Positions 10,425-39,297 of a stretch of DNA of 39,297 nucleotides are shown here, in pieces. Location: the NCBI GenBank assembly GCA_035360455.1, contig DAOSAR010000002.1:1-39297 (forward strand), in the 5' to 3' direction. The notes under the pieces were generated by a model. The model ran no database searches, was not told the origin of the DNA, and saw only the letters and a list, made by a program, of their open reading frames with translations. Source of the stretch: Candidatus Pacearchaeota archaeon (lineage in GTDB: Bacteria > Patescibacteriota > Minisyncoccia > Minisyncoccales > GCA-002788555). Made by a program: the position numbers and the translations under genes. Within the stretch, counting starts at the first letter, position 1, and each line of letters begins with the position of its first letter.

Positions 10425-10916
10425 TTATAGTCCTAATTTTTTACCAATCGTGTCGAATGCATTTCTTTGAGCTTCTTTTTCGGGAAGATAATTTAAAAGA
10501 ATATTTTTTACTCTAATAATGTCTCGCTTATACAAAGGAAGGCTAATATAAGAAGGAAAATTTTTTTTATTTTTAATATAAACTTCTACTGGCTCTTCGA
10601 ATATCCAAAAACTTTCAAGATTTTTCCAGGGGAAAAGTTCATTTTCTATTTTAATGCCTCTTTCAATAATAGCGAAAGATTGTTCTTTAGATTGTCTTGG
10701 AAAGAAAAATATTAAAAAAATAATGACCGCTACTAACGCTGCTCCAAAATAATTTTTCTGCCATAAGAATAAAGCCATGCAAATAATTAAAAAACTAGTT
10801 ATTCCTATCTGCCATTTTTTATCAATTTCATCTTCTTTTTTATATTTCCATTTGAAAAGAGTTTCCTGTGGCTCAGGGCTTGTTTCTTTTTTTTGGAGAT
10901 CAATATGTTTTTCCAT
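10425..10916 (-). CDS. Hypothetical two-TM membrane protein
   Basis: 163-aa ORF with two adjacent hydrophobic helices (ITSFLIICMALFLW, AALVAVIIFLIFFF). I recognise no family. Confidence 0.65.
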   Translation of the reverse strand: MEKHIDLQKKETSPEPQETLFKWKYKKEDEIDKKWQIGITSFLIICMALFLWQKNYFGAALVAVIIFLIFFFPRQSKEQSFAIIERGIKIENELFPWKNLESFWIFEEPVEVYIKNKKNFPSYISLPLYKRDIIRVKNILLNYLPEKEAQRNAFDTIGKKLGL

Positions 10917-10940: not shown

Positions 10941-11432
10941 TTATCTTAGGCAATGGTCGGCTACGGATGTAGCGCCAAAAGATTCTGGTTTAATTTTTAC
11001 CTCAAAACCATTTCCTTTTACCATTCCCACTATTTCTTTTATCATTTCTTTCGTTTCTCCAACTTGGCCAATATCTGTATGGATTTCAAGATCTTTAAAA
11101 TTATTAGGTTGTTTTTTTTGGAATTTTTTTTCTAATGCTTCTCTTAGTTTAGTTGCCAGGATTAAAGATTTCATTGTTTCTTCGTAAATTCTTGTTCTTA
11201 AGGTATATTTTTTTCCAGTTTTAGATTTTTGGTAAAAAAATCTTCCTCCTTTCCCTTGTCGATGAATAACAATAGCAGTTACAAATTCTGGATATTCTTT
11301 CCCTTCAGAATCAGTTCCTACAACTAGTTTATAAATTTCTTTTGGATCTTTCAATATAAAATCAACCAGGTTATCGACAACTTGATTAAAACTCATTTTT
11401 CCATATGTTGGGCTTTGAAAATAATCAGACAT
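10941..11432 (-). CDS. YkuK/DUF458-like (RNase H-like fold) protein
   Basis: VVGTDSEGKEYPEFVTAIVIHRQGKGGRFFY and the C-terminal region resemble the YkuK family as I remember it. Confidence 0.55.
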   Translation of the reverse strand: MSDYFQSPTYGKMSFNQVVDNLVDFILKDPKEIYKLVVGTDSEGKEYPEFVTAIVIHRQGKGGRFFYQKSKTGKKYTLRTRIYEETMKSLILATKLREALEKKFQKKQPNNFKDLEIHTDIGQVGETKEMIKEIVGMVKGNGFEVKIKPESFGATSVADHCLR

Positions 11433-16988: not shown

Positions 16989-17990
16989 ATGAAAATAGGT
17001 ATTGATCTTGGCACTTGTAATTCAATTGTTTTTGTGAAAGGAAAAGGAATTGTTTTGTCAGAACCTACCGTTGTTGCTGTTTCTCAAGAAGAAAACAGAG
17101 TTTTAGCTATTGGGAAAGAAGCAAAAGAAATGCTTGGTCGCACTCCTGATACAATTGTTGCTTACCGTCCATTAAGAGATGGGGTTATTGCTGATTTCAG
17201 AGTTACCGAAGCAATGCTTCGCTATTTCATTCGAAAAGTTCAAGGGCATTTTTCCTTTACAAAACCAGAAGTTTTAATTGGCATTCCAGCTGGAGCTACT
17301 TCAACTGAAAGAAGAGCAGTGATAGAAGCTGCTTTAAAGGCCGGTGCAAAAGAAGCTTTTGTAGCAAAAGAACCGATTCTTTCAGCTATTGGCGCTGGCA
17401 TTCCTATAAACTCTTCTTCTGGCAATATGATTGTTGATATTGGTGGAGGAACAACAGAAGTTGCAGTTATTTCTCTTGGTGGGATTGTTTCAGCATCTTC
17501 AGTAAGAGTTGGTGGAGACAAATTTGATTCAGCTATTGAAAACTATATTAAAGAAAAATATGACCTGGCCATTGGAGAACAAACAGCCGAAAGGATTAAA
17601 ATTCAAATTGGTTCAGCTATGCCCCCAAAAGAAGAAAAAAAGATGAGAATAAAAGGAAGAGATTTAGTTTTGGGCCTGCCAAAAACTATTGAAATTTCCT
17701 CAACTGAAATTTGTCAATCTCTTCAAGATCAATTAGGAGAAATTCTTCAATGTGTTAAAAGTGTTTTAAAAGAAACTCCTCCAGAAATTTCCGCTGACAT
17801 TATGGATAAAGGAATGGTTTTAGCAGGTGGTGGTTCGCTTTTAAGAAGGATTGATGAATATTTGGCCAAAAACACCGGCGTGCCTTCTCAAATTGCCGAG
17901 GAGCCATTTTTTTGCGTAGCAAAGGGCACAGGCATTGTTCTTGAGCATCTTGATACTTATAAAAAGAGTATAATGGCAAAAAAGGCTTAA
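16989..17990 (+). CDS. mreB: MreB-like actin homolog, paralog 1
   Basis: IGIDLGTCNSIVF, NMIVDIGGGTTEVAVISLGGIV and VLAGGGSLLRRIDEYL. Confidence 0.9.
   Translation: MKIGIDLGTCNSIVFVKGKGIVLSEPTVVAVSQEENRVLAIGKEAKEMLGRTPDTIVAYRPLRDGVIADFRVTEAMLRYFIRKVQGHFSFTKPEVLIGIPAGATSTERRAVIEAALKAGAKEAFVAKEPILSAIGAGIPINSSSGNMIVDIGGGTTEVAVISLGGIVSASSVRVGGDKFDSAIENYIKEKYDLAIGEQTAERIKIQIGSAMPPKEEKKMRIKGRDLVLGLPKTIEISSTEICQSLQDQLGEILQCVKSVLKETPPEISADIMDKGMVLAGGGSLLRRIDEYLAKNTGVPSQIAEEPFFCVAKGTGIVLEHLDTYKKSIMAKKA
17424..17489 (+). repeat. 66-bp tract identical to 19864..19929 (mreB paralog 2)
   Basis: aatatgattgttgatattggtggaggaacaacagaagttgcagttatttctcttggtgggattgtt occurs in both genes with no mismatch, while the flanking codons differ extensively. 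Confidence 0.9.
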
Positions 17991-19410: not shown

Positions 19411-20445
19411 ATGTTTTTTCATCGCGACATTGGAATTGATCTTGGAACGGCAAATACTTTAGTTTATGCGAAAGGCCGGGGAATTATTATTAACGAACCT
19501 TCGGTAGTGGCCATTAATAAAAAAACAGGTCAAGTTTTAGCAGTGGGCGAAGAAGCTAGAAAAATGGTTGGCAAAACCCCAGGCCACATTGTTGCAACAA
19601 AACCCTTAGTTGGAGGAGTCGTTTCTGATTTTGAAATTACTGAACAAATGCTTCGTTATTTTATTGATAAAGTTTGCGGAAAAAGATTTTTTCCTTGGCC
19701 TCAGCCACGTTTAGTGATTGGTGTTCCTTGCGGAGTAACTGAGGTTGAGAAAAAGGCAGTAGAAGATGCAGCGCGAAATGCAGGTGCTGGAGAGGTTTAT
19801 TTGATTGAAGAACCAATGGCTGCGGCTATTGGCGCGCGTTTGCCAGTTCAGGAAGCAGGAGGAAATATGATTGTTGATATTGGTGGAGGAACAACAGAAG
19901 TTGCAGTTATTTCTCTTGGTGGGATTGTTAACTCACGCTCAATTAGGGTGGCTGGCAATAAATTAGATCAAGATATCATTCGTTATGCCGAGGAAAAATT
20001 TAAATTGATTTTAGGAGAAAGAACAGCAGAAGAAATAAAAATTAAAATTGGCTCAGCAATACCTTTAAAAGAAAAGCTCGAATATCCGATGAGAGGAAGA
20101 GATATTATTACGGGCTTGCCAAAAGAAATTATGGTTAGCGATGAAGATATTCGCGAAGCAATAAAAGGCTCAGTAAGAACAATTGTAAATGAAGTTAAAG
20201 CAGCGGTTGAAGATACGCCTCCTGAGCTTTTAGCTGATATTATGGCAAAAGGAATTTATCTTGTAGGGGGAGGTAGTCTTTTGCGAGGGCTAGATGAACT
20301 TTTAAAAAAAGAAACAAAAATTCCAGTAAAAATACCTGAAGATTCAATGACAGCTGTTGCGCGAGGTTGTGGTATTGTTCTTGAAAATTTACCAAAATTA
20401 AGAGAAGTTTTAGTATCAACAGAAGAGCTAGAGGCACCGAAATAA
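19411..20445 (+). CDS. mreB: Rod-shape-determining protein MreB, paralog 2 (more canonical)
   Basis: DIGIDLGTANTLVY, NMIVDIGGGTTEVAVISLGGIV and YLVGGGSLLRGLDELLKKET. Confidence 0.92.
   Translation: MFFHRDIGIDLGTANTLVYAKGRGIIINEPSVVAINKKTGQVLAVGEEARKMVGKTPGHIVATKPLVGGVVSDFEITEQMLRYFIDKVCGKRFFPWPQPRLVIGVPCGVTEVEKKAVEDAARNAGAGEVYLIEEPMAAAIGARLPVQEAGGNMIVDIGGGTTEVAVISLGGIVNSRSIRVAGNKLDQDIIRYAEEKFKLILGERTAEEIKIKIGSAIPLKEKLEYPMRGRDIITGLPKEIMVSDEDIREAIKGSVRTIVNEVKAAVEDTPPELLADIMAKGIYLVGGGSLLRGLDELLKKETKIPVKIPEDSMTAVARGCGIVLENLPKLREVLVSTEELEAPK
19864..19929 (+). repeat. 66-bp tract identical to 17424..17489 (mreB paralog 1)
   Basis: Exact match by direct comparison of the two stretches. Confidence 0.9.
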
Positions 20446-20837: not shown

Positions 20838-22334
20838 ATGACTATTACCGAACTTCATCAAAAATTTATTAAAAAAGAGTTATCGCCAGTAGAAATGGTT
20901 AAAGATTATTTTAAAAAAATTAAAAAAGATGATAGAGAAATTCATGCTTTTTTAACTTTAATGGAAGATGAAGCGTTTTTAGAAGCAAAAGAAGCCGAAA
21001 AAAAATTTTTAAAAGCAAAATCAAAAAATGACATTGAAAAAATTCCTCTTTTATGTGGCATACCTTGCGCTGTTAAAGACAATATTTTGATTGAAGATGT
21101 AAGATGCACAGCTGGTTCAAAAATTCTCGAAGATTACATTGCTCCTTATAGTGCCACAGTAATTGAAAAATTAAAAAATTTAGGAGTAGTATTTTTAGGA
21201 AAAACCAATCTTGATGAATTTGCTATGGGAGCTTCAACAGAAACCTCAGCTTACGGAGTAACGCATAATCCAATTGATAAAACTCGAGTTCCTGGTGGTT
21301 CTTCTGGCGGATCAGCTGCTGCTGTTGCTGCTGATTTTTGCCAATTTGCTTTAGGTTCTGACACTGGTGGCTCAATTCGTCAGCCGGCTTCTTTTTGCGG
21401 AGTTGTTGGTTTAAAACCAACCTATGGAGCAGTTTCAAGATATGGCTTAATTGCAATGGCTTCTTCTCTTGATCAAATCGGACCAATAACAAAAAACGTT
21501 GAAGATGCAGAAATAGTATTTAAAGCAATTAAAGGTAAGGACTCTTATGATTCGACTTCTGTCGAATCAGAGTTTCCAATTGCCGAACCCTACGAAGCAG
21601 AGCGAGGCGTAAAAAGAAGTAAAGCCTCATTGGATTCTACTTTTCAATTTTCAAAACTACGCATTGGTATTCCCAAAGAGTACTTTATTAAAGGAATAGA
21701 AAAGGATGTAAAAGAGAATATTGAAAAAGCTATAGAAAAATTTCAAAAATTAGGAGCAAAAATAGAAAGTATTTCTCTCCCGCATACAAAATATGCTTTA
21801 GCAACTTATTACTTAATTATGCCATCAGAAGTTTCTTCAAACTTAGCAAGATATGATGGGATTAGATATGGCTTGTCTAAATCTAAAATTTCAAAACTAA
21901 CTCCAAAAAATTCATTTGAAATTTATTCAAAAATTCGAGGAAAATATTTAGGGGCAGAAGCAAAAAGAAGAATTTTACTTGGAACTTTTGCTTTATCAGC
22001 TGGCTATTACGATCAATATTATTTAAAAGCAAGAATGGTAAGAGAGCTTATTAAAAAAGATTTTGAAATTGCTTTTCAAAAAGTTGATTTAATCTTAACA
22101 CCAGTTTCACCGACAACAGCTTTTAAAATTGGTGAAAACATTAATGATCCAGTAAAAATGTATTTATCAGATATCTTTACAGTGGGAGTAAGTTTAGTAG
22201 GTTTGCCAGCTCTTTCTTTACCATGCGGGAATTCAAAAGAAGGATTGCCAATCGGTTTACAAATTATTGGGAAACCTTTTAAAGAAAATATTATTTTAAA
22301 AACAGCAAAAACCTTCGATGAATTTTATTCTTAG
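20838..22334 (+). CDS. gatA: Asp/Glu-tRNA amidotransferase subunit A
   Basis: Amidase signature GGSSGGSAAAVA and GSDTGGSIRQPASFCGVVGLKPTYG. It contains extra residues around 21573-21655. Confidence 0.92.
   Translation: MTITELHQKFIKKELSPVEMVKDYFKKIKKDDREIHAFLTLMEDEAFLEAKEAEKKFLKAKSKNDIEKIPLLCGIPCAVKDNILIEDVRCTAGSKILEDYIAPYSATVIEKLKNLGVVFLGKTNLDEFAMGASTETSAYGVTHNPIDKTRVPGGSSGGSAAAVAADFCQFALGSDTGGSIRQPASFCGVVGLKPTYGAVSRYGLIAMASSLDQIGPITKNVEDAEIVFKAIKGKDSYDSTSVESEFPIAEPYEAERGVKRSKASLDSTFQFSKLRIGIPKEYFIKGIEKDVKENIEKAIEKFQKLGAKIESISLPHTKYALATYYLIMPSEVSSNLARYDGIRYGLSKSKISKLTPKNSFEIYSKIRGKYLGAEAKRRILLGTFALSAGYYDQYYLKARMVRELIKKDFEIAFQKVDLILTPVSPTTAFKIGENINDPVKMYLSDIFTVGVSLVGLPALSLPCGNSKEGLPIGLQIIGKPFKENIILKTAKTFDEFYS
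21573..21655 (+). repeat. In-frame tract of about 83 nt shared with ileS (36720..36802)
   Basis: An ungapped hand alignment gives about 67 of 83 identical positions. Both copies are in codon phase 0 and encode F(P/Q)IAEP(Y/C)EA(E/R)R(G/D)VKR(S/G)K(A/I)SL(D/N)S(T/K)FQF. Confidence 0.8.
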
Positions 22335-22468: not shown

Positions 22469-23707
22469 TTATTTTGGAGTTTTTTCCTTTGATCTTTTTC
22501 TTTCAATAATGCCATATCCAAGAATTGCAGAAAGGATTGAAAGGATTATTGCCGATGAAGCACCAGTTGTAGGAACATTAGGAATTGTTCTTTCAGTTGA
22601 AGCTCCCAAAACCTGACCAGGCGGTGTTGAAGGCGTTGGTATGGGAATTTCCGGTTTTGGAGTAGGAACTAAAGTAGGTGTTAAAGAAAGATCTGCTTCA
22701 AAAACCACATGTCCTTGATATGGCCAACATCCTTCAATATCGCCGATAGTCACAGTTGCTCTATTATTAGAAATAGTAACTGGCACTGATTTTCCTTCGC
22801 TAGACTGATTTGGATACCAAAGAGCAGTTGTTTTAAAGATAAGTTTTTCATTAGCATTGTTGGTCAAATTAATTGTTCCTTGATCGTAAACCGCAGTAGC
22901 ATTATCTGCCTCTATTATTCCCACTGTAACAATTTTATTTCCTGGTTCTGTTGGAAATTCAATCGAGATTTTTACATTTTTTGCAGTAGAGCATTCAATT
23001 CCATTATGGTAGTAAACATCGAAACTAATCGTATCTCCCGCATCGGCCGAGATCGGATCTTGCCAGTCTGCAGTCCCTTTAGTTTTGTTTTTCAATCTCA
23101 AGGTTTCCTTGTCGTTTGTCATAAAATTAAACTGAGGATTGGGTTTTGAAATTGTTCCTTCAAAAACTACATGACCTTGACTTTGCCAACCGCCTGCAAT
23201 GTTGCCGATATTTACAAGAACACTATTCGATTGAACAAATGTCACAGATTTATTTTGAGAAACAGTGCCTTGATTTGGATACCACAAAGCGTTCTTGTCG
23301 AAAGTAAAACTTAACCCAGAACAGGGAACTTCTACTATTCCAAGATCGTCAACATAATTTGCATTATCTGCCCAAAGAAAAGCGTGAAATTTTAATTTAT
23401 TATTTTTGTTGTCTTCAAAATCCAATCTAATCTGGGTGTTTTTTGCAGTTGTACCTGCGACTGTATTGTGGTAATAAACATCAAAAGCAATTTTATCTCC
23501 AGCTTTTGCCGAAATCTGATCTTGCCAATCTGTGGTTCCTGTAGTTCTATTTTTCATTCTCAAAGTTGATTTGTCTTGAGGATCATTATTAAATACAGGA
23601 GCAGCAGCAAAAACTTTTTCTGGCATAAAAGCAATTCCTTCAATCAAAACTAAACTTAAGAGAATACTTCCTCCAATAATTTTTTTAAAAATATTTTTTG
23701 CATTCAT
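22469..23707 (-). CDS. Secreted surface protein with two beta-sandwich-like repeats, a Pro-rich stalk and a VPTTG sortase sorting signal
   Basis: The track ORF starts at a GTG at 23767. ATG at 23707 (MNAKNIFKKIIGGSILLSLVL...AAAP) gives a clean signal peptide. There are two repeats of about 150 aa (STLRMKNRTTGTTDWQDQISAKAGDKIAFDVYYHN... and ETLRLKNKTKGTADWQDPISADAGDTISFDVYYHN...). The C-terminus is NVPTTGASSAIILSILSAILGYGIIERKRSKEK. Confidence 0.8.
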   Translation of the reverse strand: MNAKNIFKKIIGGSILLSLVLIEGIAFMPEKVFAAAPVFNNDPQDKSTLRMKNRTTGTTDWQDQISAKAGDKIAFDVYYHNTVAGTTAKNTQIRLDFEDNKNNKLKFHAFLWADNANYVDDLGIVEVPCSGLSFTFDKNALWYPNQGTVSQNKSVTFVQSNSVLVNIGNIAGGWQSQGHVVFEGTISKPNPQFNFMTNDKETLRLKNKTKGTADWQDPISADAGDTISFDVYYHNGIECSTAKNVKISIEFPTEPGNKIVTVGIIEADNATAVYDQGTINLTNNANEKLIFKTTALWYPNQSSEGKSVPVTISNNRATVTIGDIEGCWPYQGHVVFEADLSLTPTLVPTPKPEIPIPTPSTPPGQVLGASTERTIPNVPTTGASSAIILSILSAILGYGIIERKRSKEKTPK

Positions 23708-23788
23708 ATTTTTTCCGTTAGAAATAATTTTTAACGAATCTGTTTTTATTTCGACCTTTTCAACCACCTTTAGGCAGTTTTAAACAAA

Positions 23789-23931: not shown

Positions 23932-25245
23932 TTATTGAGGATCTGGTCCTGGTCCTCCGCTATCGGAGCTTCCAGAACTACCCGAACTGCCTGATCCTGA
24001 ACCTGAACTTGAACTTCCACCGTCTGATCCACTTGAACTTCCACCGTCTGATCCACTTGAACTTCCCGAGTCACCATTATCTGATTCTCCACCTGAAGAA
24101 CATGATTGTGATCCTGGTGGAGAAGAAGGAGATGGAGGAGAAGATGTTCCTCCTGGGCCACCCGAATCTGAATTACTGCTGCTTGAACCGCTTGATCCAG
24201 CATGATCTGATCCGCTATTAAGATAAAATGATTGAGCTTTTAAAGCTGAAAGAACTTTTATAGGGTTTCCGCAATACATCAGTATTCGTGGCGTTCCAAT
24301 CAGATCTGTTAAGACTTTTTCATCTCTGGATAAATATTGTTGAAATACACAATATTCTCCATTACGTAAGCCTGCGCTCAAAACAAATGTTCCTTTTGGT
24401 AGGATCTTAACTAGTTTTTCATCTCTTTGAGTATCTTCAACTATTTTTTCAAAAATCATGAAGGATTCAACATTATTTAAGCTCAATCCGCTGATATCCT
24501 TTAAGGGTTTTTCGTATTCAGGGTGAGATTTTATATATTCAAAAACATCTTTCCAGCATTCAACTCCTCCTCCAATCATAGCTTCAATCTCTAAAGACGT
24601 TCCTACTTTTTTTGTTTTTTCTTTCGCCGGTGGCAACGTTATTGGCGTTGCTGCTGCTGTTGTTGTTGTTGTTGTTGTTGATTCAACCGGTATTGGTGGT
24701 GTTGACTTTGACAGAGTTGATTTTTCTTTTGGTTTTGGTTTTGGCTTAGGGGTTTCTACCCGACAAGGATTCCCGCAATCTGTTAAAACCCTAGGAATGC
24801 CATTCGTATCTGCCAGTGCTATTCTTGCTTTTGGTAAAGACTGTTTAATTGAATAGTACTTGCCGTTTTTCTGACCAGTGTTGATTAAAAAGGTTCCCTT
24901 TGGAACGACCATTTTCAGGCTAAGTCCTTTTTTCTCAAGAACAGCAAGAGAGTGGACTGTTTCAAAGTCTAAACCAGTTATCTCTTTCATAAGGCGAGCG
25001 TAATCGGGATCATTTTCCATTTTAGTAAGAACTTCTTGCCAAGATGAAAGACCATTAGGAACAACTCCATTATTTCGTTCTGTTCGTTGCGTAATTTGTT
25101 GGGGAACTGGTTGCTGTGTGGATTGTTGTGATGCTTGTTCCGGTTGGACCATTTGCTCTTGTTGCCGTTCTTCCTTTTGATTTAGCCAGCCAAAGAGCCA
25201 AAAAACTAATACAAGGATAGCTACGAAACTCACAATTTTTTTCAC
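23932..25245 (-). CDS. Membrane-anchored or secreted protein with two repeats of about 95 aa, a poly-Thr linker and a long Ser/Gly-rich tail
   Basis: GTG start preceded by GGGGGGTG. There is an N-terminal TM helix and a Q-rich region. The repeats share the pattern ...PDYARLMKEITGLDFETVHS...PKGTFLINTGQKNGKYY...GIPRVLTDCGNP / ...PEYEKPLKDISGLSLNNVES...PKGTFVLSAGLRNGEYC...GTPRILMYCGNP. The tail reads GSSSGSDGGSSSGSDGG... Confidence 0.75.
   Translation of the reverse strand: MKKIVSFVAILVLVFWLFGWLNQKEERQQEQMVQPEQASQQSTQQPVPQQITQRTERNNGVVPNGLSSWQEVLTKMENDPDYARLMKEITGLDFETVHSLAVLEKKGLSLKMVVPKGTFLINTGQKNGKYYSIKQSLPKARIALADTNGIPRVLTDCGNPCRVETPKPKPKPKEKSTLSKSTPPIPVESTTTTTTTAAATPITLPPAKEKTKKVGTSLEIEAMIGGGVECWKDVFEYIKSHPEYEKPLKDISGLSLNNVESFMIFEKIVEDTQRDEKLVKILPKGTFVLSAGLRNGEYCVFQQYLSRDEKVLTDLIGTPRILMYCGNPIKVLSALKAQSFYLNSGSDHAGSSGSSSSNSDSGGPGGTSSPPSPSSPPGSQSCSSGGESDNGDSGSSSGSDGGSSSGSDGGSSSSGSGSGSSGSSGSSDSGGPGPDPQ
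24008..24066. repeat. 24-bp tandem repeat, about 2.5 copies, inside the S/G-rich tail
   Basis: cttgaacttccaccgtctgatcca occurs at 24008-24031 and 24032-24055, followed by a partial third copy. Confidence 0.85.
24659..24679. repeat. (GTT)7 trinucleotide repeat preceded by a short GCT-triplet run, encoding poly-Thr/Ala on the minus strand
   Basis: Direct reading of gctgctgctgttgttgttgttgttgttgttg. Confidence 0.85.
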
Positions 25246-29923: not shown

Positions 29924-30322
29924 AAGAGCATTAGTAAGCCGAGTTCTGTCCTATTTCTCATTTTTTAATTTAAAAGTGAGAAATAGTGATAGTCATTTCT
30001 CTAGCTCCATAATTACTTATGGAGTCAAGCTCCCTTTTTAAAGGATGGGATTACATCAGGTAGGGTTTGCCATAGTCAATGTTTCCATTGACTAACTCGC
30101 CTGAGGCGAGACTTTTCACCTTTCTCCCACTTTCAGATGAAAGCGGGGTAGTATAGTCTCTGTGGCACTTTCCCTAGCCTTACGGCCGGTGGGAGTTACC
30201 CACTACCTACTTCTGCCAATTTTGCATTCACTCGCAAAGCTTATGAGCAAAATTGGAGGATGCTCGGACTTTCCTCCCCTCACCTTCGTAAAAGGTGAGG
30301 GGCGACTACCTTACTTGCTCTT
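29924..30322 (-). ncRNA. rnpB: RNase P RNA
   Basis: The minus strand reads AAGAGCAAGTAAGG...CCCCTCACC-ttttacgaa-GGTGAGGGGAGGAAAGTCCGAGCATCC (P3 and the P4 5' strand)...GGAAAGTGCCACAGAGA...GGACAGAACTCGGCTTACTAATGCTCTT (P4 3' strand, with P1 closing). The region of about 400 nt is ORF-free and GC-richer than its surroundings. Confidence 0.88.
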
Positions 30323-35246: not shown

Positions 35247-35447
35247 ATACGCGAGCCCCGCTCCGCAGAGCGGAGCGAAGTTCAATGAATTAAATATTCA
35301 TTTCACCGAGCTCACTACGTTCGCTCGAGCGTGGAGATGAAGGTAAACTCCGGCCCCTCACCCTCCTCGAAGAAGGTGAGGGGAAAGGGCGAAGACAAAA
35401 ACAAAGTTTTTGTGGAGCCCTGAAGGAGGTAAACTTCATCGACTTAT
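35247..35447 (-). other. GC-rich multi-hairpin spacer of about 200 nt inside the rpsF-ssb-rpsR operon (candidate structured RNA)
   Basis: Plus-strand hairpins are CGCTCCGC-aga-GCGGAGCG, AATGAAT-taaat-ATTCATT, CGAGC...GCTCG, CCCCTCACC-ctcctcgaagaa-GGTGAGGGG and ACAAAAAC-aaa-GTTTTTGT. An outer pair GATGAAG...CTTCATC is also present. There is no ORF. Confidence 0.35.
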
Positions 35448-35855
35448 TTATTTAAGTAATTCGTCTAATTTTTTATCTAATTCTTCAATTTTAACTTTTT
35501 CTTTTTTAACTTTTTTCTTAGTTTCTTCTAAGAATGGTTTTCGTCTTATTTTTTTAGGATGAGCTTCTTTTTCTTTCTTTTCTTTTTTCTCAAGAAGTGT
35601 TCTTAAAATATTTCCTTCCATTTTTAAGAATTGAGAAAGTTCTTTTATCTTTTCGGGTTCCATTTCAAAAATTATTACTCCTAAAAATCCTTCTAAATGT
35701 TTTTTTACAGGATAAGCAAAAATTTTCTTTTCAATGAATTGTTCTTCAATCTTGCCATTTAATTTTTTAATTTCATCATTGATTTTTTTTAAAAATTTCT
35801 CTCTTTCTCTTATTTCTAAATTTGGAGTTAAAAAAGCTAATTCGTAGTAAAACAT
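35448..35855 (-). CDS. rpsF: 30S ribosomal protein S6 with a Lys-rich C-terminal extension
   Basis: MFYYELAFLTPNLEIRERE...FAYPVKKHLEGF is the bS6 pattern. The start was moved from the track's 35903 to the ATG at 35855. Confidence 0.85.
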   Translation of the reverse strand: MFYYELAFLTPNLEIREREKFLKKINDEIKKLNGKIEEQFIEKKIFAYPVKKHLEGFLGVIIFEMEPEKIKELSQFLKMEGNILRTLLEKKEKKEKEAHPKKIRRKPFLEETKKKVKKEKVKIEELDKKLDELLK

Positions 35856-36110: not shown

Positions 36111-39100
36111 ATGGAATTTAACTTACCAAAAGAAGAGAAAAAAATTCTTAATTTCTGGGAAGAGGAGAAAATTTTTCAAAGCAGCCTTCAGAAGACAAAA
36201 GGAAAACCTAATTTTGTTTTTTATGAAGGACCTCCTGGAGCAAATGGGAGGCCTGGCCTTCATCATATTTTATCGCGCAGCTATAAAGATATTATTTGTC
36301 GCTATAAAACGATGAAAGGTTTTTATGTTGAAAGAAGAGCTGGTTGGGATACTCATGGTTTACCGGTAGAGTTAGAAGTTGAAAAACAGCTTCAAATTAA
36401 AACAAAGCAAGACATTGAAAAATTTGGAATTGATAAATTCATTGAAAACTGTCAAAACCTTGTTTGGCGTTACAAAGCAGAATGGGAAAAAGTGACCGAA
36501 GAAATTGGTTTTTGGCTTGATTTTGAAAATGCCTATATTACTTATGACCCACTTTATATTGAAAGTTTGTGGTACATAATAAAAGAAATTTACAAGAAAG
36601 GACTTTTGTATGAAGATAAAAAAGCCGTTCCTTGGTGTCCACGATGTCAAACTTCTTTATCATCTCATGAGGTTGCTTTAGGATATCAAAAAGTAAAAGA
36701 TCGAGCAATTTATGTAAAATTTCAAATTGCCGAACCTTGTGAAGCAAGGCGAGACGTGAAAAGAGGTAAAATCTCATTGAATTCCAAGTTTCAATTTTTA
36801 AATACTTATTTTCTTGCTTGGACGACCACTCCTTGGACCTTACCAGGAAATATGGCCTTAGCAGTAAATCCTGATATTGATTATGTATTAGTTGAAGCGG
36901 ACTTACTCGGATTAGCGAAAAAGAATAAAGATCAATATATCTTAGCTAAATCAAGATTAAAAGAAATTTTTCAGGAAAATGACTATAAAATTCTTAAAGA
37001 ATTAAAAGGTAAAGAGTTAATTGGTTTAGAATATAAACCACCTTATCCTACGCCTGATATTAAAAATCAATCAGCAAATATTTATCACGTTGTGGCTGGT
37101 AACTTTGTTTCTACAGAAGAAGGAACAGGAATTGTTCATATTTCCCCTGCTTTTGGAGAAGATGATTTTAGAGTAGGAAAAGAAAATAATTTATCTCCAT
37201 TGGTAACTGTAAATGAAGATGGCACAATGAAAAAAGGAGTTATTGGAGAGGGAAAATTTATTAAAGAAGCAGAACCAATAATTATTGAAGAATTAAAAAA
37301 ACGGAATTTGATTTTTAAAGAAGAGTTGTACGAACATGATTATCCGTTTTGCTGGCGTTGTAAAACTCCACTTTTGTATTACTTACACACATCTTGGTTT
37401 TTTGCCATAGAAAAGATTAAAGAAAAATTAATTCAAAATAATCAAAAAGTAAATTGGATTCCTCCTTATATAAAGAAAGGAAGATTTGGTAAATGGTTAG
37501 AAGAAGGCAGAGATTGGAATTTTTCTCGAGAAAGATATTGGGGAACACCCTTGCCAATCTGGAAATGCAAAAATTGTCAAAAAGTTGAATTAATTGGTTC
37601 AAGAGAAGATTTAAGAAAAGAAAAATTTTCCACTAATAGATATTTTATCTTAAGACACGGATTAGCAAAGCAAAATATTAATGGAATAGTAAATTCTTCT
37701 CCGGAGGAAAATTTTCCCTTAACCCAAAAAGGAAAATCTCAAGCTAAAAAAGCTGTTTTAAAATTAAAAAAATTATTAGACTCGTCTTGTCAAAGCCCTC
37801 GGCGTAACACAGGCAAAGAAAAATTAGATATTATTTTTTCTTCCGATCTTCAAAGATGCAAAGAAACAGCAGAAATTATTTCTAATGAATTAGGAGCTAA
37901 AATTATTTTTTCTTCAGAACTTCGAGACCTAAATTTTGGAGAGTATAATGGTAAGAGCATTATGCAATATAGAAAAGATTTTCCTTATGACCTTTCAAGA
38001 TTTCAAAAACGTTTGCCTGGCGGAGAAAGTTGGAATGATTGTAAAAAAAGAATGATAAAATTTATAGAAAAAATCGAAAAAAAATACCAAAATAAAAATA
38101 TTTTAATTATTAGTCATGGCGATCCTTTATGGCTGTTGGAAGGAGCGATGAAGGGATTAACTAATGAAGAAATACTAAATTCAAGAAAAAAAATGATAGA
38201 CAAAGGAGAATTAAGAGAAATTGAGTTTAAAAAATTTCCCTATAATAAAAAAGGAGAACTTGATTTCCACCGGCCTTTTGTTGATGAAATAAATTTTTAT
38301 TGTCCGTATTGTCAAAAAGAAAAAATGCAAAGAGTGAAAGAGGTTGGTGATGTTTGGTTTGATTCCGGCGCGATGCCCTTTGGTCAAGCTCATTGGCCAT
38401 TTAGTCAACCCAAAAGTCAAAGATTAAAACCACCAGAATTATTCCCTGCAGATTTTATTTGTGAAGGAGTAGATCAAACAAGAGGGTGGTTTTACACATT
38501 ATTAGCAGTTTCTTCACTCCTCTTAGGATTTCCCGCTCCGTATAAAAATGTTTTAGTTTTAGGTTTGCTTCTTGATAAGGAAGGCAAAAAGATGTCGAAA
38601 TCAAGGGGAAATGCAGTTTTTCCAGAAGAAATGATTCAAAAATATGGAGCTGACACTATCCGATTTTACTTTTTTACAATTAACCAGCCATGGGAGTCAA
38701 AAAAATTTGATGAAAAAGATTTAAGAAAAACCTATAATCGCTTTATTTTAACAATCGAAAATTTACTTAACTTTCTTTTAACTTATACAAATACAAAAAC
38801 AAAAAAGCTAAAAACTGTTTCTTTAAAGAAAGAAATTTTAGATAACTGGATTTTATCAAAAATAGAAAATTTAAAGAAAGAAATAGATGATCTTTTATCT
38901 AATTATAAAATAGTTGAAGCTGCAAGATTAATCGAAAAATTTACTATCGAAGATCTCTCCAATTGGTATTTAAGAAGATCAAGATATCGGCTAAAGAAGG
39001 GTGATAAAAACGCTATTGCTACGTTTAGTTATGTGCTCTTTAATCTTTCCTTAATCTTAGCTCCATTTACTCCATTTTTAAGTGAGGAAGTCTATCAAAA

Positions 39101-39297
39101 AGTTACGGGATCAAATTTCAAAAGTAAAAAATCAGTTCATTTAGAAAAGTTTCCTGAAGTAAGAAAAGATTTTATTAATAAGGAATTAGAAGAAAAGATG
39201 GGAAAAACAAGAGAAATTATTACCCTGGGACTTTCTGAGAGAAAAAAAGCAGGAATAAAAGTAAGACAACCAATCGCTTCGCTTAAAATTAAAAATC
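36111..39297 (+). CDS. ileS: Isoleucyl-tRNA synthetase (type 2-like), 3'-truncated by the window end
   Basis: It is not in the ORF track because it has no stop in the window. My own translation gives MEFNLPKEEKKILNFWEEEKIF...YEGPPGANGRPGLHHILSRSYKD...AGWDTHGLPVELEVEK...WTTTPWTLPGN...GTGIVHISPAFGEDD...RERYWGTPLPIWKCKNC...DVWFDSGAMPF...GVDQTRGWFYTLL...KMSKSRGN. The absence of any plus-strand ORF fragment of 60 aa or more in the track here is consistent with one continuous frame. Confidence 0.93.
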   Translation, partial: MEFNLPKEEKKILNFWEEEKIFQSSLQKTKGKPNFVFYEGPPGANGRPGLHHILSRSYKDIICRYKTMKGFYVERRAGWDTHGLPVELEVEKQLQIKTKQDIEKFGIDKFIENCQNLVWRYKAEWEKVTEEIGFWLDFENAYITYDPLYIESLWYIIKEIYKKGLLYEDKKAVPWCPRCQTSLSSHEVALGYQKVKDRAIYVKFQIAEPCEARRDVKRGKISLNSKFQFLNTYFLAWTTTPWTLPGNMALAVNPDIDYVLVEADLLGLAKKNKDQYILAKSRLKEIFQENDYKILKELKGKELIGLEYKPPYPTPDIKNQSANIYHVVAGNFVSTEEGTGIVHISPAFGEDDFRVGKENNLSPLVTVNEDGTMKKGVIGEGKFIKEAEPIIIEELKKRNLIFKEELYEHDYPFCWRCKTPLLYYLHTSWFFAIEKIKEKLIQNNQKVNWIPPYIKKGRFGKWLEEGRDWNFSRERYWGTPLPIWKCKNCQKVELIGSREDLRKEKFSTNRYFILRHGLAKQNINGIVNSSPEENFPLTQKGKSQAKKAVLKLKKLLDSSCQSPRRNTGKEKLDIIFSSDLQRCKETAEIISNELGAKIIFSSELRDLNFGEYNGKSIMQYRKDFPYDLSRFQKRLPGGESWNDCKKRMIKFIEKIEKKYQNKNILIISHGDPLWLLEGAMKGLTNEEILNSRKKMIDKGELREIEFKKFPYNKKGELDFHRPFVDEINFYCPYCQKEKMQRVKEVGDVWFDSGAMPFGQAHWPFSQPKSQRLKPPELFPADFICEGVDQTRGWFYTLLAVSSLLLGFPAPYKNVLVLGLLLDKEGKKMSKSRGNAVFPEEMIQKYGADTIRFYFFTINQPWESKKFDEKDLRKTYNRFILTIENLLNFLLTYTNTKTKKLKTVSLKKEILDNWILSKIENLKKEIDDLLSNYKIVEAARLIEKFTIEDLSNWYLRRSRYRLKKGDKNAIATFSYVLFNLSLILAPFTPFLSEEVYQKVTGSNFKSKKSVHLEKFPEVRKDFINKELEEKMGKTREIITLGLSERKKAGIKVRQPIASLKIKN
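36720..36802 (+). repeat. In-frame tract of about 83 nt shared with gatA (21573..21655)
   Basis: See the gatA copy. The tract lies in the variable loop between YVKF and WTTTPWTLP. Confidence 0.8.
37638..38180 (+). other. Histidine-phosphatase (PGAM-like) domain inserted within IleRS
   Basis: RYFILRHGLAKQN (RHG), IIFSSDLQRCKETAE, ELRDLNFGEYNG, LPGGESWNDCKKR and ILIISHGDPLWLL (second His). The domain is in frame between ...ELIGSREDL and ELDFHRPFVDE..., which are only about a dozen residues apart in the T. thermophilus IleRS as I remember it. Confidence 0.75.

Follow-up and report, generated by a model that had tools for sequence, protein, structure and literature searches.

The DNA analysed here is a 39,297-nt stretch (the window) that covers positions 1 to 39,297 of contig DAOSAR010000002.1 in assembly GCA_035360455.1, deposited as Candidatus Pacearchaeota archaeon and assigned by its GTDB lineage to the bacterial Patescibacteriota. 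It carries gatA, which encodes GatA, and ileS, which encodes isoleucyl-tRNA synthetase (IleRS) and is cut by the window end. A 28-codon tract, named element A, lies in frame within both genes, and a sister element, named B, was found in ileS of another strain. The host genes and the two A copies, each divided into arms and core, are as follows.

20838-22334, plus strand: host gene gatA, 498 amino acids (aa), a long open reading frame (ORF) with element A in phase 0; best Protein Data Bank (PDB) match 3h0l (E = 5e-142)
21573-21656, plus strand: element A copy in gatA, 28 codons, FPIAEPYEAERGVKRSKASLDSTFQFSK
21573-21582: 5' arm of the gatA copy (TTTCCAATTG)
21583-21640: core of the gatA copy
21641-21656: 3' arm of the gatA copy (TTTTCAATTTTCAAAA)
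36111-39297, plus strand: host gene ileS, cut by the window end, with element A in phase 0; best PDB match 1ile (E = 1e-149)
36720-36803, plus strand: element A copy in ileS, 28 codons, FQIAEPCEARRDVKRGKISLNSKFQFLN, supported by alignment and nhmmer and fixed in all assemblies
36720-36729: 5' arm of the ileS copy
36730-36787: core of the ileS copy
36788-36803: 3' arm of the ileS copy

The shared tract and its insertion sites

Ungapped alignment of gatA 21573-21655 with ileS 36720-36802 gave 67 identical bases of 83 (67/84 across the full 28 codons), and the identity, coordinates, phase 0 and encoded peptides given in an initial annotation of this DNA were all reproduced. Just beyond either end of the tract the identity falls to ~25-30%, which gives the match sharp edges. 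The background was measured by an all-against-all comparison of 83-nt ungapped windows on both strands of the whole window. Unrelated pairs reached at most 52/83. The earlier assertion that the similarity of the two tracts cannot be convergence is supported. The only other outliers above this ceiling were a patch shared by two MreB paralogs and an internal repeat of ORF 22469-23767. The gatA and ileS copies were scored by nhmmer at E ~1e-25, and a self-search of the window with nhmmer, blastn-short and tblastn recovered this pair and no third A copy at the DNA or peptide level. The core of element A has a GC content of 46-50% versus 32% for the window. Both copies are identical base for base across at least 10 independent assemblies (from ENA, JGI and Logan, and two NCBI metagenome-assembled genomes), and the assemblies fetched showed no presence/absence polymorphism of A within the window species or within a related species, the P0003 species. 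The gatA-ileS tract is non-random, and it is not an assembly artefact because the copies are identical in all independent assemblies fetched.

Element A occupies the hypervariable linker between the DSTS and LRIGIPKEYF segments of GatA. This linker measures 32 aa here versus 14-18 aa in the Aquifex and S. aureus enzymes (3h0l and 2df4), and its basal length in most close Patescibacteria relatives is 10 aa. In an AlphaFold2 model of GatA (predicted template modelling score, pTM, of 0.85), residues 246-273 have a predicted local distance difference test score (pLDDT) of ~46-60 and are mostly coil, with confident flanks. The site in IleRS is the hairpin loop that runs from the VKF strand to the WTTTPWT motif at the entry of the editing domain. 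The loop has 28 aa here versus 7 aa in P. megaterium IleRS2 (8c8w) and 14 aa in the T. thermophilus enzyme (1ile), and its basal length in most Patescibacteria is 8 aa. Alignment to the four structures, together with the low pLDDT of the GatA tract, places the tracts in variable loops, and the measured lengths agree with the statement in the initial annotation that these loops are 11-15 residues shorter in the reference enzymes. In family alignments, the A core was found in 0/120 IleRS homologs (all ≤61% identity) and is absent from P0002, the closest GatA homolog.

Both loops are hypervariable in Patescibacteria, where many homologs carry inserts of 20-37 residues with xFQIxN…NSKFQIxN arms and differing cores. 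At the DNA level, the inserts sampled from other Patescibacteria are GC-rich palindromes flanked by AAATTNCAAATT direct repeats, and the core of the insert in homolog P0138 folds at z -4.7. Across Patescibacteria the two sites are surface loops that vary and act as hot-spots of repeated insertion. Known RNA families gave no match at the gathering score at the tracts in Rfam, which identified RNase P RNA and three tRNAs only in the window, and RNA folding of the tracts was no better than that of shuffles on either strand. The full IleRS protein has 1192 aa, and 1228 aa in the strain that carries element B. It also contains an inserted histidine-phosphatase domain (His_Phos_1, PF00300; RHG…SHG motifs) encoded at window positions ~37640-38200. 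The same fusion is common among the Patescibacteria IleRS matches and marks a clade trait.

Copies in relatives and the sister element B

The window GatA (P0001) was compared with its homologs P0002-P0006; the P0003 species is the source of P0003. P0003 GatA is 72% identical to the window GatA over the full alignment and 76% over ungapped columns, and its gene holds a third A copy at the identical site, with 69/84 bases matching the window gatA copy. P0002 is closer, at 79% (full alignment) and 85% (ungapped columns). Its linker, which lacks the A core, is encoded by a 7-nt microsatellite, (AAATTGN)x4, that is the reverse complement of the A 3' arm. The gatA site of P0002, P0004 and P0005 contains arms only, reversed. 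In P0006 (88% identity to P0003) this gatA site holds an A core that is truncated and reversed; the opposite strand of the linker reads TTTCAATTT-CCGAGCTCCTGCG…GCGAAGAGAAC…-AATTTTCAATTTTT. The state and the orientation of the element at one GatA site vary among close relatives.

A profile built from the three copies detected a fourth in the P0003 species (nhmmer, E = 3e-6), truncated by the contig end. The host gene lies 4 kb from P0003 gatA and encodes an Elp3-type radical-SAM protein (Radical_SAM and Radical_SAM_C domains). The copy is translated in the same reading frame as the other A copies (…SKQGVKRDEVSLNSNIQN…) and lies immediately upstream of NETAKHRIVGISIETRPD. The hosts of A are three unrelated genes (gatA, ileS and the Elp3-type gene), and those of B are ileS and gatA. 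The matches of an exhaustive profile search were tandem-repeat junk proteins only and were rejected. A word-indexed protein search with the A peptide returned 15 candidates and missed the known copies themselves, which makes it uninformative.

The site of element B adjoins the end of the window.

39281-39297, plus strand: AT-rich low-complexity arm AAAATTAAAAATC; the B pair follows its last base in GCA_029553185.1

In strain GCA_029553185.1, B is present in ileS as a 128-nt tandem insertion (L021 6479-6606) directly after the last window base. Outside the insertion this strain and the window have 1 mismatch in 13,850 nt. The insertion consists of 64- and 65-nt tandem units, GAGTTTTACAACAGCAAAACGAGATGGAAGAAGAGAACGAAA(G)TTCTCTTCGCCCATCAAAAATC, which are translated in different frames, one acidic and one basic, with the frame restored by the pair. 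IleRS proteins from different assemblies accordingly come in two lengths, with a difference of 36 residues. No forward frame of B contains a stop, and one B copy is free of stops in all six frames (the copies range from 3 to 6). The empty ileS allele already has the arm motif in tandem. The window end is the last base shared by both ileS alleles, and three further assemblies break or have a gap ≤139 nt from it, as expected if both alleles coexist in samples. The ~46 kb of this genome in view hold two A copies and the strain-specific B pair. The polymorphism between near-clonal strains suggests that B is still moving in the window species.

The 44-nt B core is 95% identical to an insert at another loop of gatA in the P0003 species (L012 1156-1218). 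This B copy encodes a 19-aa insert, IETCNGKARWKKRTKFSSP, in the YG.SK loop, which is not the A site, and P0003 GatA holds both A (in the linker) and B (in the YG.SK loop). P0002 GatA has a distinct 11-aa insert, VDAVRGGSSNG, ahead of VDLILTP. Close GatA orthologs differ by several independent in-frame inserts.

A and B are collinear. Each contains (C)CGAG, hairpin 1, CGAG and a purine-rich hairpin 2, with family-specific AT-rich direct repeats on both sides. Hairpin 1 is CCTGC-GAA-GCAGG in A and CTTGC-AACG-GCAAG in B, and hairpin 2 is AAAGAGN-loop-NCTCTTT in A and GAAGAGAAC-GAAG-TTCTCTTC in B. The cores of A and B are ~61% identical (34/56; z 3-4); in four of five pairs, dinucleotide shuffles reached this value 0-6 times in 2000. 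The match of B to the window gatA copy was weaker (31/56, z 2.2, 48/2000 shuffles). Hairpin 1 of the P0003 copy is a 7-bp stem with the exact GCGAAGC mini-hairpin loop, and several element loops have the C-GAA-G motif. GCGAAGC is an exceptionally stable DNA mini-hairpin (PMC13037366). Hairpin 2 pairs perfectly over 7 bp in the Elp3 copy; in gatA of P0003 its 7-bp stem includes one G-T wobble. The corresponding features of the window copies, none assigned to a strand, are:

21587-21603: hairpin 1 relic of the gatA copy, ACCCTAC-GAA-GCAGAGC, 4 of 7 pairs remaining
21613-21631: hairpin 2 relic of the gatA copy, AAAGAAG-TAAAG-CCTCATT, 5 of 7 pairs
36734-36750: hairpin 1 of the ileS copy, ACCTTGT-GAA-GCAAGGC, 5 Watson-Crick pairs and 1 wobble of 7
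36760-36778: hairpin 2 of the ileS copy, AAAGAGG-TAAAA-TCTCATT, 5 Watson-Crick pairs and 1 wobble of 7

Folding was calculated for single-stranded DNA (ssDNA). The potential is strong for B (z -4.2 and -4.5; 0/200 shuffles) and present in the better-preserved A copies (Elp3, -2.2; P0003 gatA, -1.3), and it is eroded in those of the window (ileS, -0.9; gatA, 0.0), whose stems are broken mainly by transitions. The hairpin described in the initial annotation (GAGGC...GCCTC in gatA and GAGA...TCTC in ileS, with a compensatory change) turned out to be an alternative register that is not conserved in the other copies; what the family keeps is hairpins 1 and 2. Hairpin strength tracks apparent age, with whole hairpins in recently moved B and decaying ones in fixed A. 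This is the pattern expected if the hairpins serve spreading and not the host, as they probably do.

The differences between pairs of A copies fall at all codon positions (4/7/6, 5/3/7 and 3/4/10 at the first, second and third positions), and 11-13 of the 15-17 differences are transitions. Substitutions in A show no apparent constraint at the protein level. Of the 28 peptide residues, 17 are invariant across the three full copies. Element A has a single open forward frame, which all four copies use; their common phase thus reflects survivorship. Pairwise identities of the three full copies are nearly equal (80-82%). The two gatA copies that share a site match at 82% of bases between the species, against 59% at third codon positions of the flanking gene (P = 4e-6). 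This excess of identity would follow if the copies postdate the species split as independent insertions at one hot-spot, if they have been homogenised with each other, or if their DNA sequence itself is under constraint. Targeting by a diversity-generating retroelement was considered and rejected; the differences are mostly transitions at all four bases and are not adenine-specific, and the hosts are essential enzymes.

Proposed origin and spread of the elements

We favor the interpretation that the tract belongs to a family of in-frame mini-repeats, short double-hairpin elements that resemble the Rickettsia palindromic elements (RPE), with a probability of about 0.68. The initial annotation had left the choice between an RPE-like repeat and ectopic repair or conversion. 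The copy in a third gene, the second species, element B and the reverse-oriented copy favor the repeat, and conversion is kept as a candidate spreading route. The similarity of gatA and ileS is not a private exchange between these genes, because copies are present in gatA of a relative and in an Elp3-type gene and because B is polymorphic. The elements would span ~60-85 nt and consist of an AT-rich arm, (C)CGAG, hairpin 1, CGAG, hairpin 2 and an arm that directly repeats the first. Copies would be installed in AT-rich low-complexity stretches that code for variable surface loops of housekeeping genes, and would survive only where the open frame of the element coincides with that of the host, to be translated as a tolerated loop extension. 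The element would be selfish DNA of the RPE kind, and the A copies of the window would be old, fixed and decaying. The elements appear to be copied as units.

Two routes of spreading are rated about equally likely. One would be transposition in trans by an enzyme that recognises ssDNA hairpins, for example a Y1 transposase of the IS200/IS605 or RAYT (REP-associated tyrosine transposase) type; the presence of hairpins together with the absence of terminal inverted repeats suggests such single-strand transposition. The other would be transposase-free short-patch copying, by gene conversion or template switching, with the arm repeats as microhomology. Arm-guided copying is suggested by the family-specific flanking repeats, by the tandem arm motif in the empty ileS allele and by the conversion patch in the MreB genes.

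Several observations weigh against the repeat family. No transposase was found in the ~46 kb of this genome in view, and the elements have no terminal inverted repeats; their ends are direct repeats, of the TTTCAATT type in A and the ATCAAAAAT type in B. Direct repeats flank every copy, and those of ileS are already in the empty allele. Since they are family-specific, they are probably not ordinary target-site duplications. The kinship of A and B is suggested by sequence statistics of moderate strength, which are not proof. The known copies number just four for A, one of them truncated, and three for B. All of their known hosts are enzymes that handle tRNA, which gives a functional reading some footing. 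HMMER over 1.84 billion representative proteins detected no further in-frame A copy in a collection whose 50% clustering hides lineage-specific loops. A pattern of 19 specified bases, searched over ~1.2e12 positions of species-representative genomes with ~4 matches expected by chance, gave 5 matches, a chance-level result that was not inspected base by base. One metagenome collection yielded one known copy and 4 chance matches to the A pattern (30-42/84 positions), and the A and B patterns had 0 matches in viral sequences.

An unlikely alternative is a single direct ectopic event between gatA and ileS, either gene conversion or templated repair of a break, with microhomology of the AT-rich loops as the primer and no repeat family involved. 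This genome does undergo short-patch ectopic conversion. The MreB paralogs (16989-17990 and 19411-20445), which lie 2.4 kb apart, are 61% identical in DNA overall and share a 69-nt patch (17421-17489 and 19861-19929) of 99% identity. Sequence of the AAATTTCAAATT type is found in both loops of many Patescibacteria and is a possible source of microhomology, and the number of known copies is small. A single event does not provide for a fourth copy in a third gene of another species, for three full copies that are about equally distant from each other, or for a reverse-oriented copy at the same gatA site. Nor does it account for collinear B, which is likewise common to gatA and ileS and is polymorphic between near-clonal strains. 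Somewhat less probable again is a useful basic peptide module (…RGVKRGK…) recruited repeatedly by tRNA-handling enzymes (GatA, IleRS and Elp3) and held by protein selection. Every host found so far acts on tRNA, the invariant residues make up more than half of the peptide, all A copies use one frame, and the elements are fixed within each species. The sampling of hosts is biased, however, as the contigs searched were those with gatA and ileS, and the common frame is forced on an element with one open forward frame. Differences at all three codon positions without a synonymous excess also argue against protein selection, as do the closest GatA relatives, which work without the tract, and the predicted disorder of the region. 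B is even translated in two frames, acidic and basic, within one gene.

Neither chance similarity between AT-rich stretches of low complexity nor a chimeric assembly has any appreciable probability. The arms are indeed of low complexity, and NSKFQI-like motifs are scattered across the window, but neither explains a core with a higher GC content than the window, a match far above the background ceiling, or two copies that agree in every independent assembly.

Extended beyond this genome, the repeat family leads to a broader and more tentative proposal, to which we give somewhat less than even odds. Patescibacteria, the candidate phyla radiation (CPR), may host undescribed tiny double-hairpin elements, stop-free in up to six frames, that still move between near-clonal strains and enter, repeatedly and in both orientations, AT-rich hot-spots coding for loops of essential genes. 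If so, many of the loop insertions that are typical of CPR proteins, specific to lineages and so far unexplained, would have a concrete origin in such elements, and these might spread without a transposase via hairpin- and arm-guided short-patch copying. Full-text literature searches returned no description of such elements in CPR/Patescibacteria; their coverage was incomplete and an earlier description is possible.

Related systems and other features of the window

RPE are hairpin-forming repeats that lie in frame within unrelated genes and are read through at fold-compatible positions (PMC10969869). The elements described here are likewise short hairpin repeats in frame in unrelated housekeeping genes, with several related families in a small, AT-rich, reduced genome. 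They share with the RPE class the occurrence in several unrelated genes, a conserved in-frame peptide, hairpin potential (in B and the better-preserved A copies) and surface positions. They differ in length (60-85 nt versus roughly 100-150 bp) and in plan, with two hairpins, GAA/GAAG loops and arms that are AT-rich direct repeats. The RPE class is marked by many copies per genome (tens); the 39 kb of the window hold two of A. The host also belongs to another phylum than Rickettsia, namely Patescibacteria; the genes of the window and their best named homologs indicate its Parcubacteria group, and a protein of a sister species is labelled Minisyncoccales. Given the phylum and the element length, membership in the Rickettsia sequence families RPE-1 to RPE-10 is unlikely, and the likeness described here is one of class features.

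The mini-elements of the REP (repetitive extragenic palindrome)/REPIN-RAYT and IS200/IS605 systems are similar in being small imperfect palindromes that would be recognised as ssDNA hairpins, with no terminal inverted repeats and, in the elements here, probably no classical target-site duplication. REPs are extragenic and have a GTAG or CGTC tag (PMC3733652). The alignment of the copies has no conserved GTAG/CGTC tag, and all copies here are intragenic. The visible DNA, ~46 kb of this genome, contains no gene for a RAYT or Y1 transposase.

[quoted passage not shown] Like the elements here, they are non-autonomous repeats, from below 100 to 200 nt long, that can sit inside ORFs and vary between strains; unlike MITEs, A and B lack terminal inverted repeats, have no known parent insertion sequence, and are flanked by family-specific repeats already present at the empty allele. 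Tracts produced by short-patch ectopic gene conversion are similar in size (70-85 nt) and in their sharp edges, and the process is active in this window, in the MreB genes. The present host genes are non-homologous, so that only the low-complexity arms could give homology, and the sequence is found in at least three genes and in both orientations.

To our knowledge, in-frame repeats inside essential genes are well documented almost only in Rickettsia. A smaller and differently built counterpart in Patescibacteria would show that this lifestyle arose more than once in reduced AT-rich genomes, a case that is strengthened by the presence and absence of B between strains that differ at ~1 base in 14,000. 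The polymorphic ileS site is a natural before-and-after pair for the insertion mechanism. It is also relevant to metagenome assembly, as contigs break at such a site here.

Another selfish element within an essential gene was observed on the same contig, ~9.5 kb past the window end (L020 1-269), where FtsH (1054 aa) contains an intein with a LAGLIDADG homing-endonuclease domain. The spacer between rpsF (ribosomal protein S6) and ssb (SSB) at 35286-35448 was considered as a diverged A or B copy and was rejected, since only one of ten comparisons beat shuffles, and weakly. The spacer has dense GC-rich hairpins, for example CGCTCCGC-AGA-GCGGAGCG and CCCCTCACC…GGTGAGGGG, and the stem CCCCTCACC/GGTGAGGGG recurs within the RNase P RNA gene (30270-30297).

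The internal repeat that exceeded the background ceiling lies in ORF 22469-23767 (minus strand), which encodes an unannotated 432-aa protein with no Pfam match; the 83-nt repeat units at 23002 and 23464 are identical at 64/83 positions. The neighboring ORF 23932-25245 (minus strand) is repetitive and of low complexity with a faint DUF6777 match. A 24-nt repeat-unit indel near 24007 distinguishes strains, and the product ranges from 429 to 438 aa among assemblies. Two adjacent 163-aa ORFs are located at 10425-10916 and 10941-11432 (minus strand), the second of which matches PF04308 (RNaseH_like), while the first has no recorded Pfam match. They adjoin genes for a VirD4/TraG-like ATPase and a DUF8128 protein, and the neighborhood may be what is left of a conjugation or type IV secretion module. 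The gene at 448-2865 encodes a Laminin_G_3 (concanavalin-like lectin) protein of 792-805 aa between strains and holds most of the single-nucleotide polymorphisms among assemblies. All assemblies break just upstream of it, at the window start.

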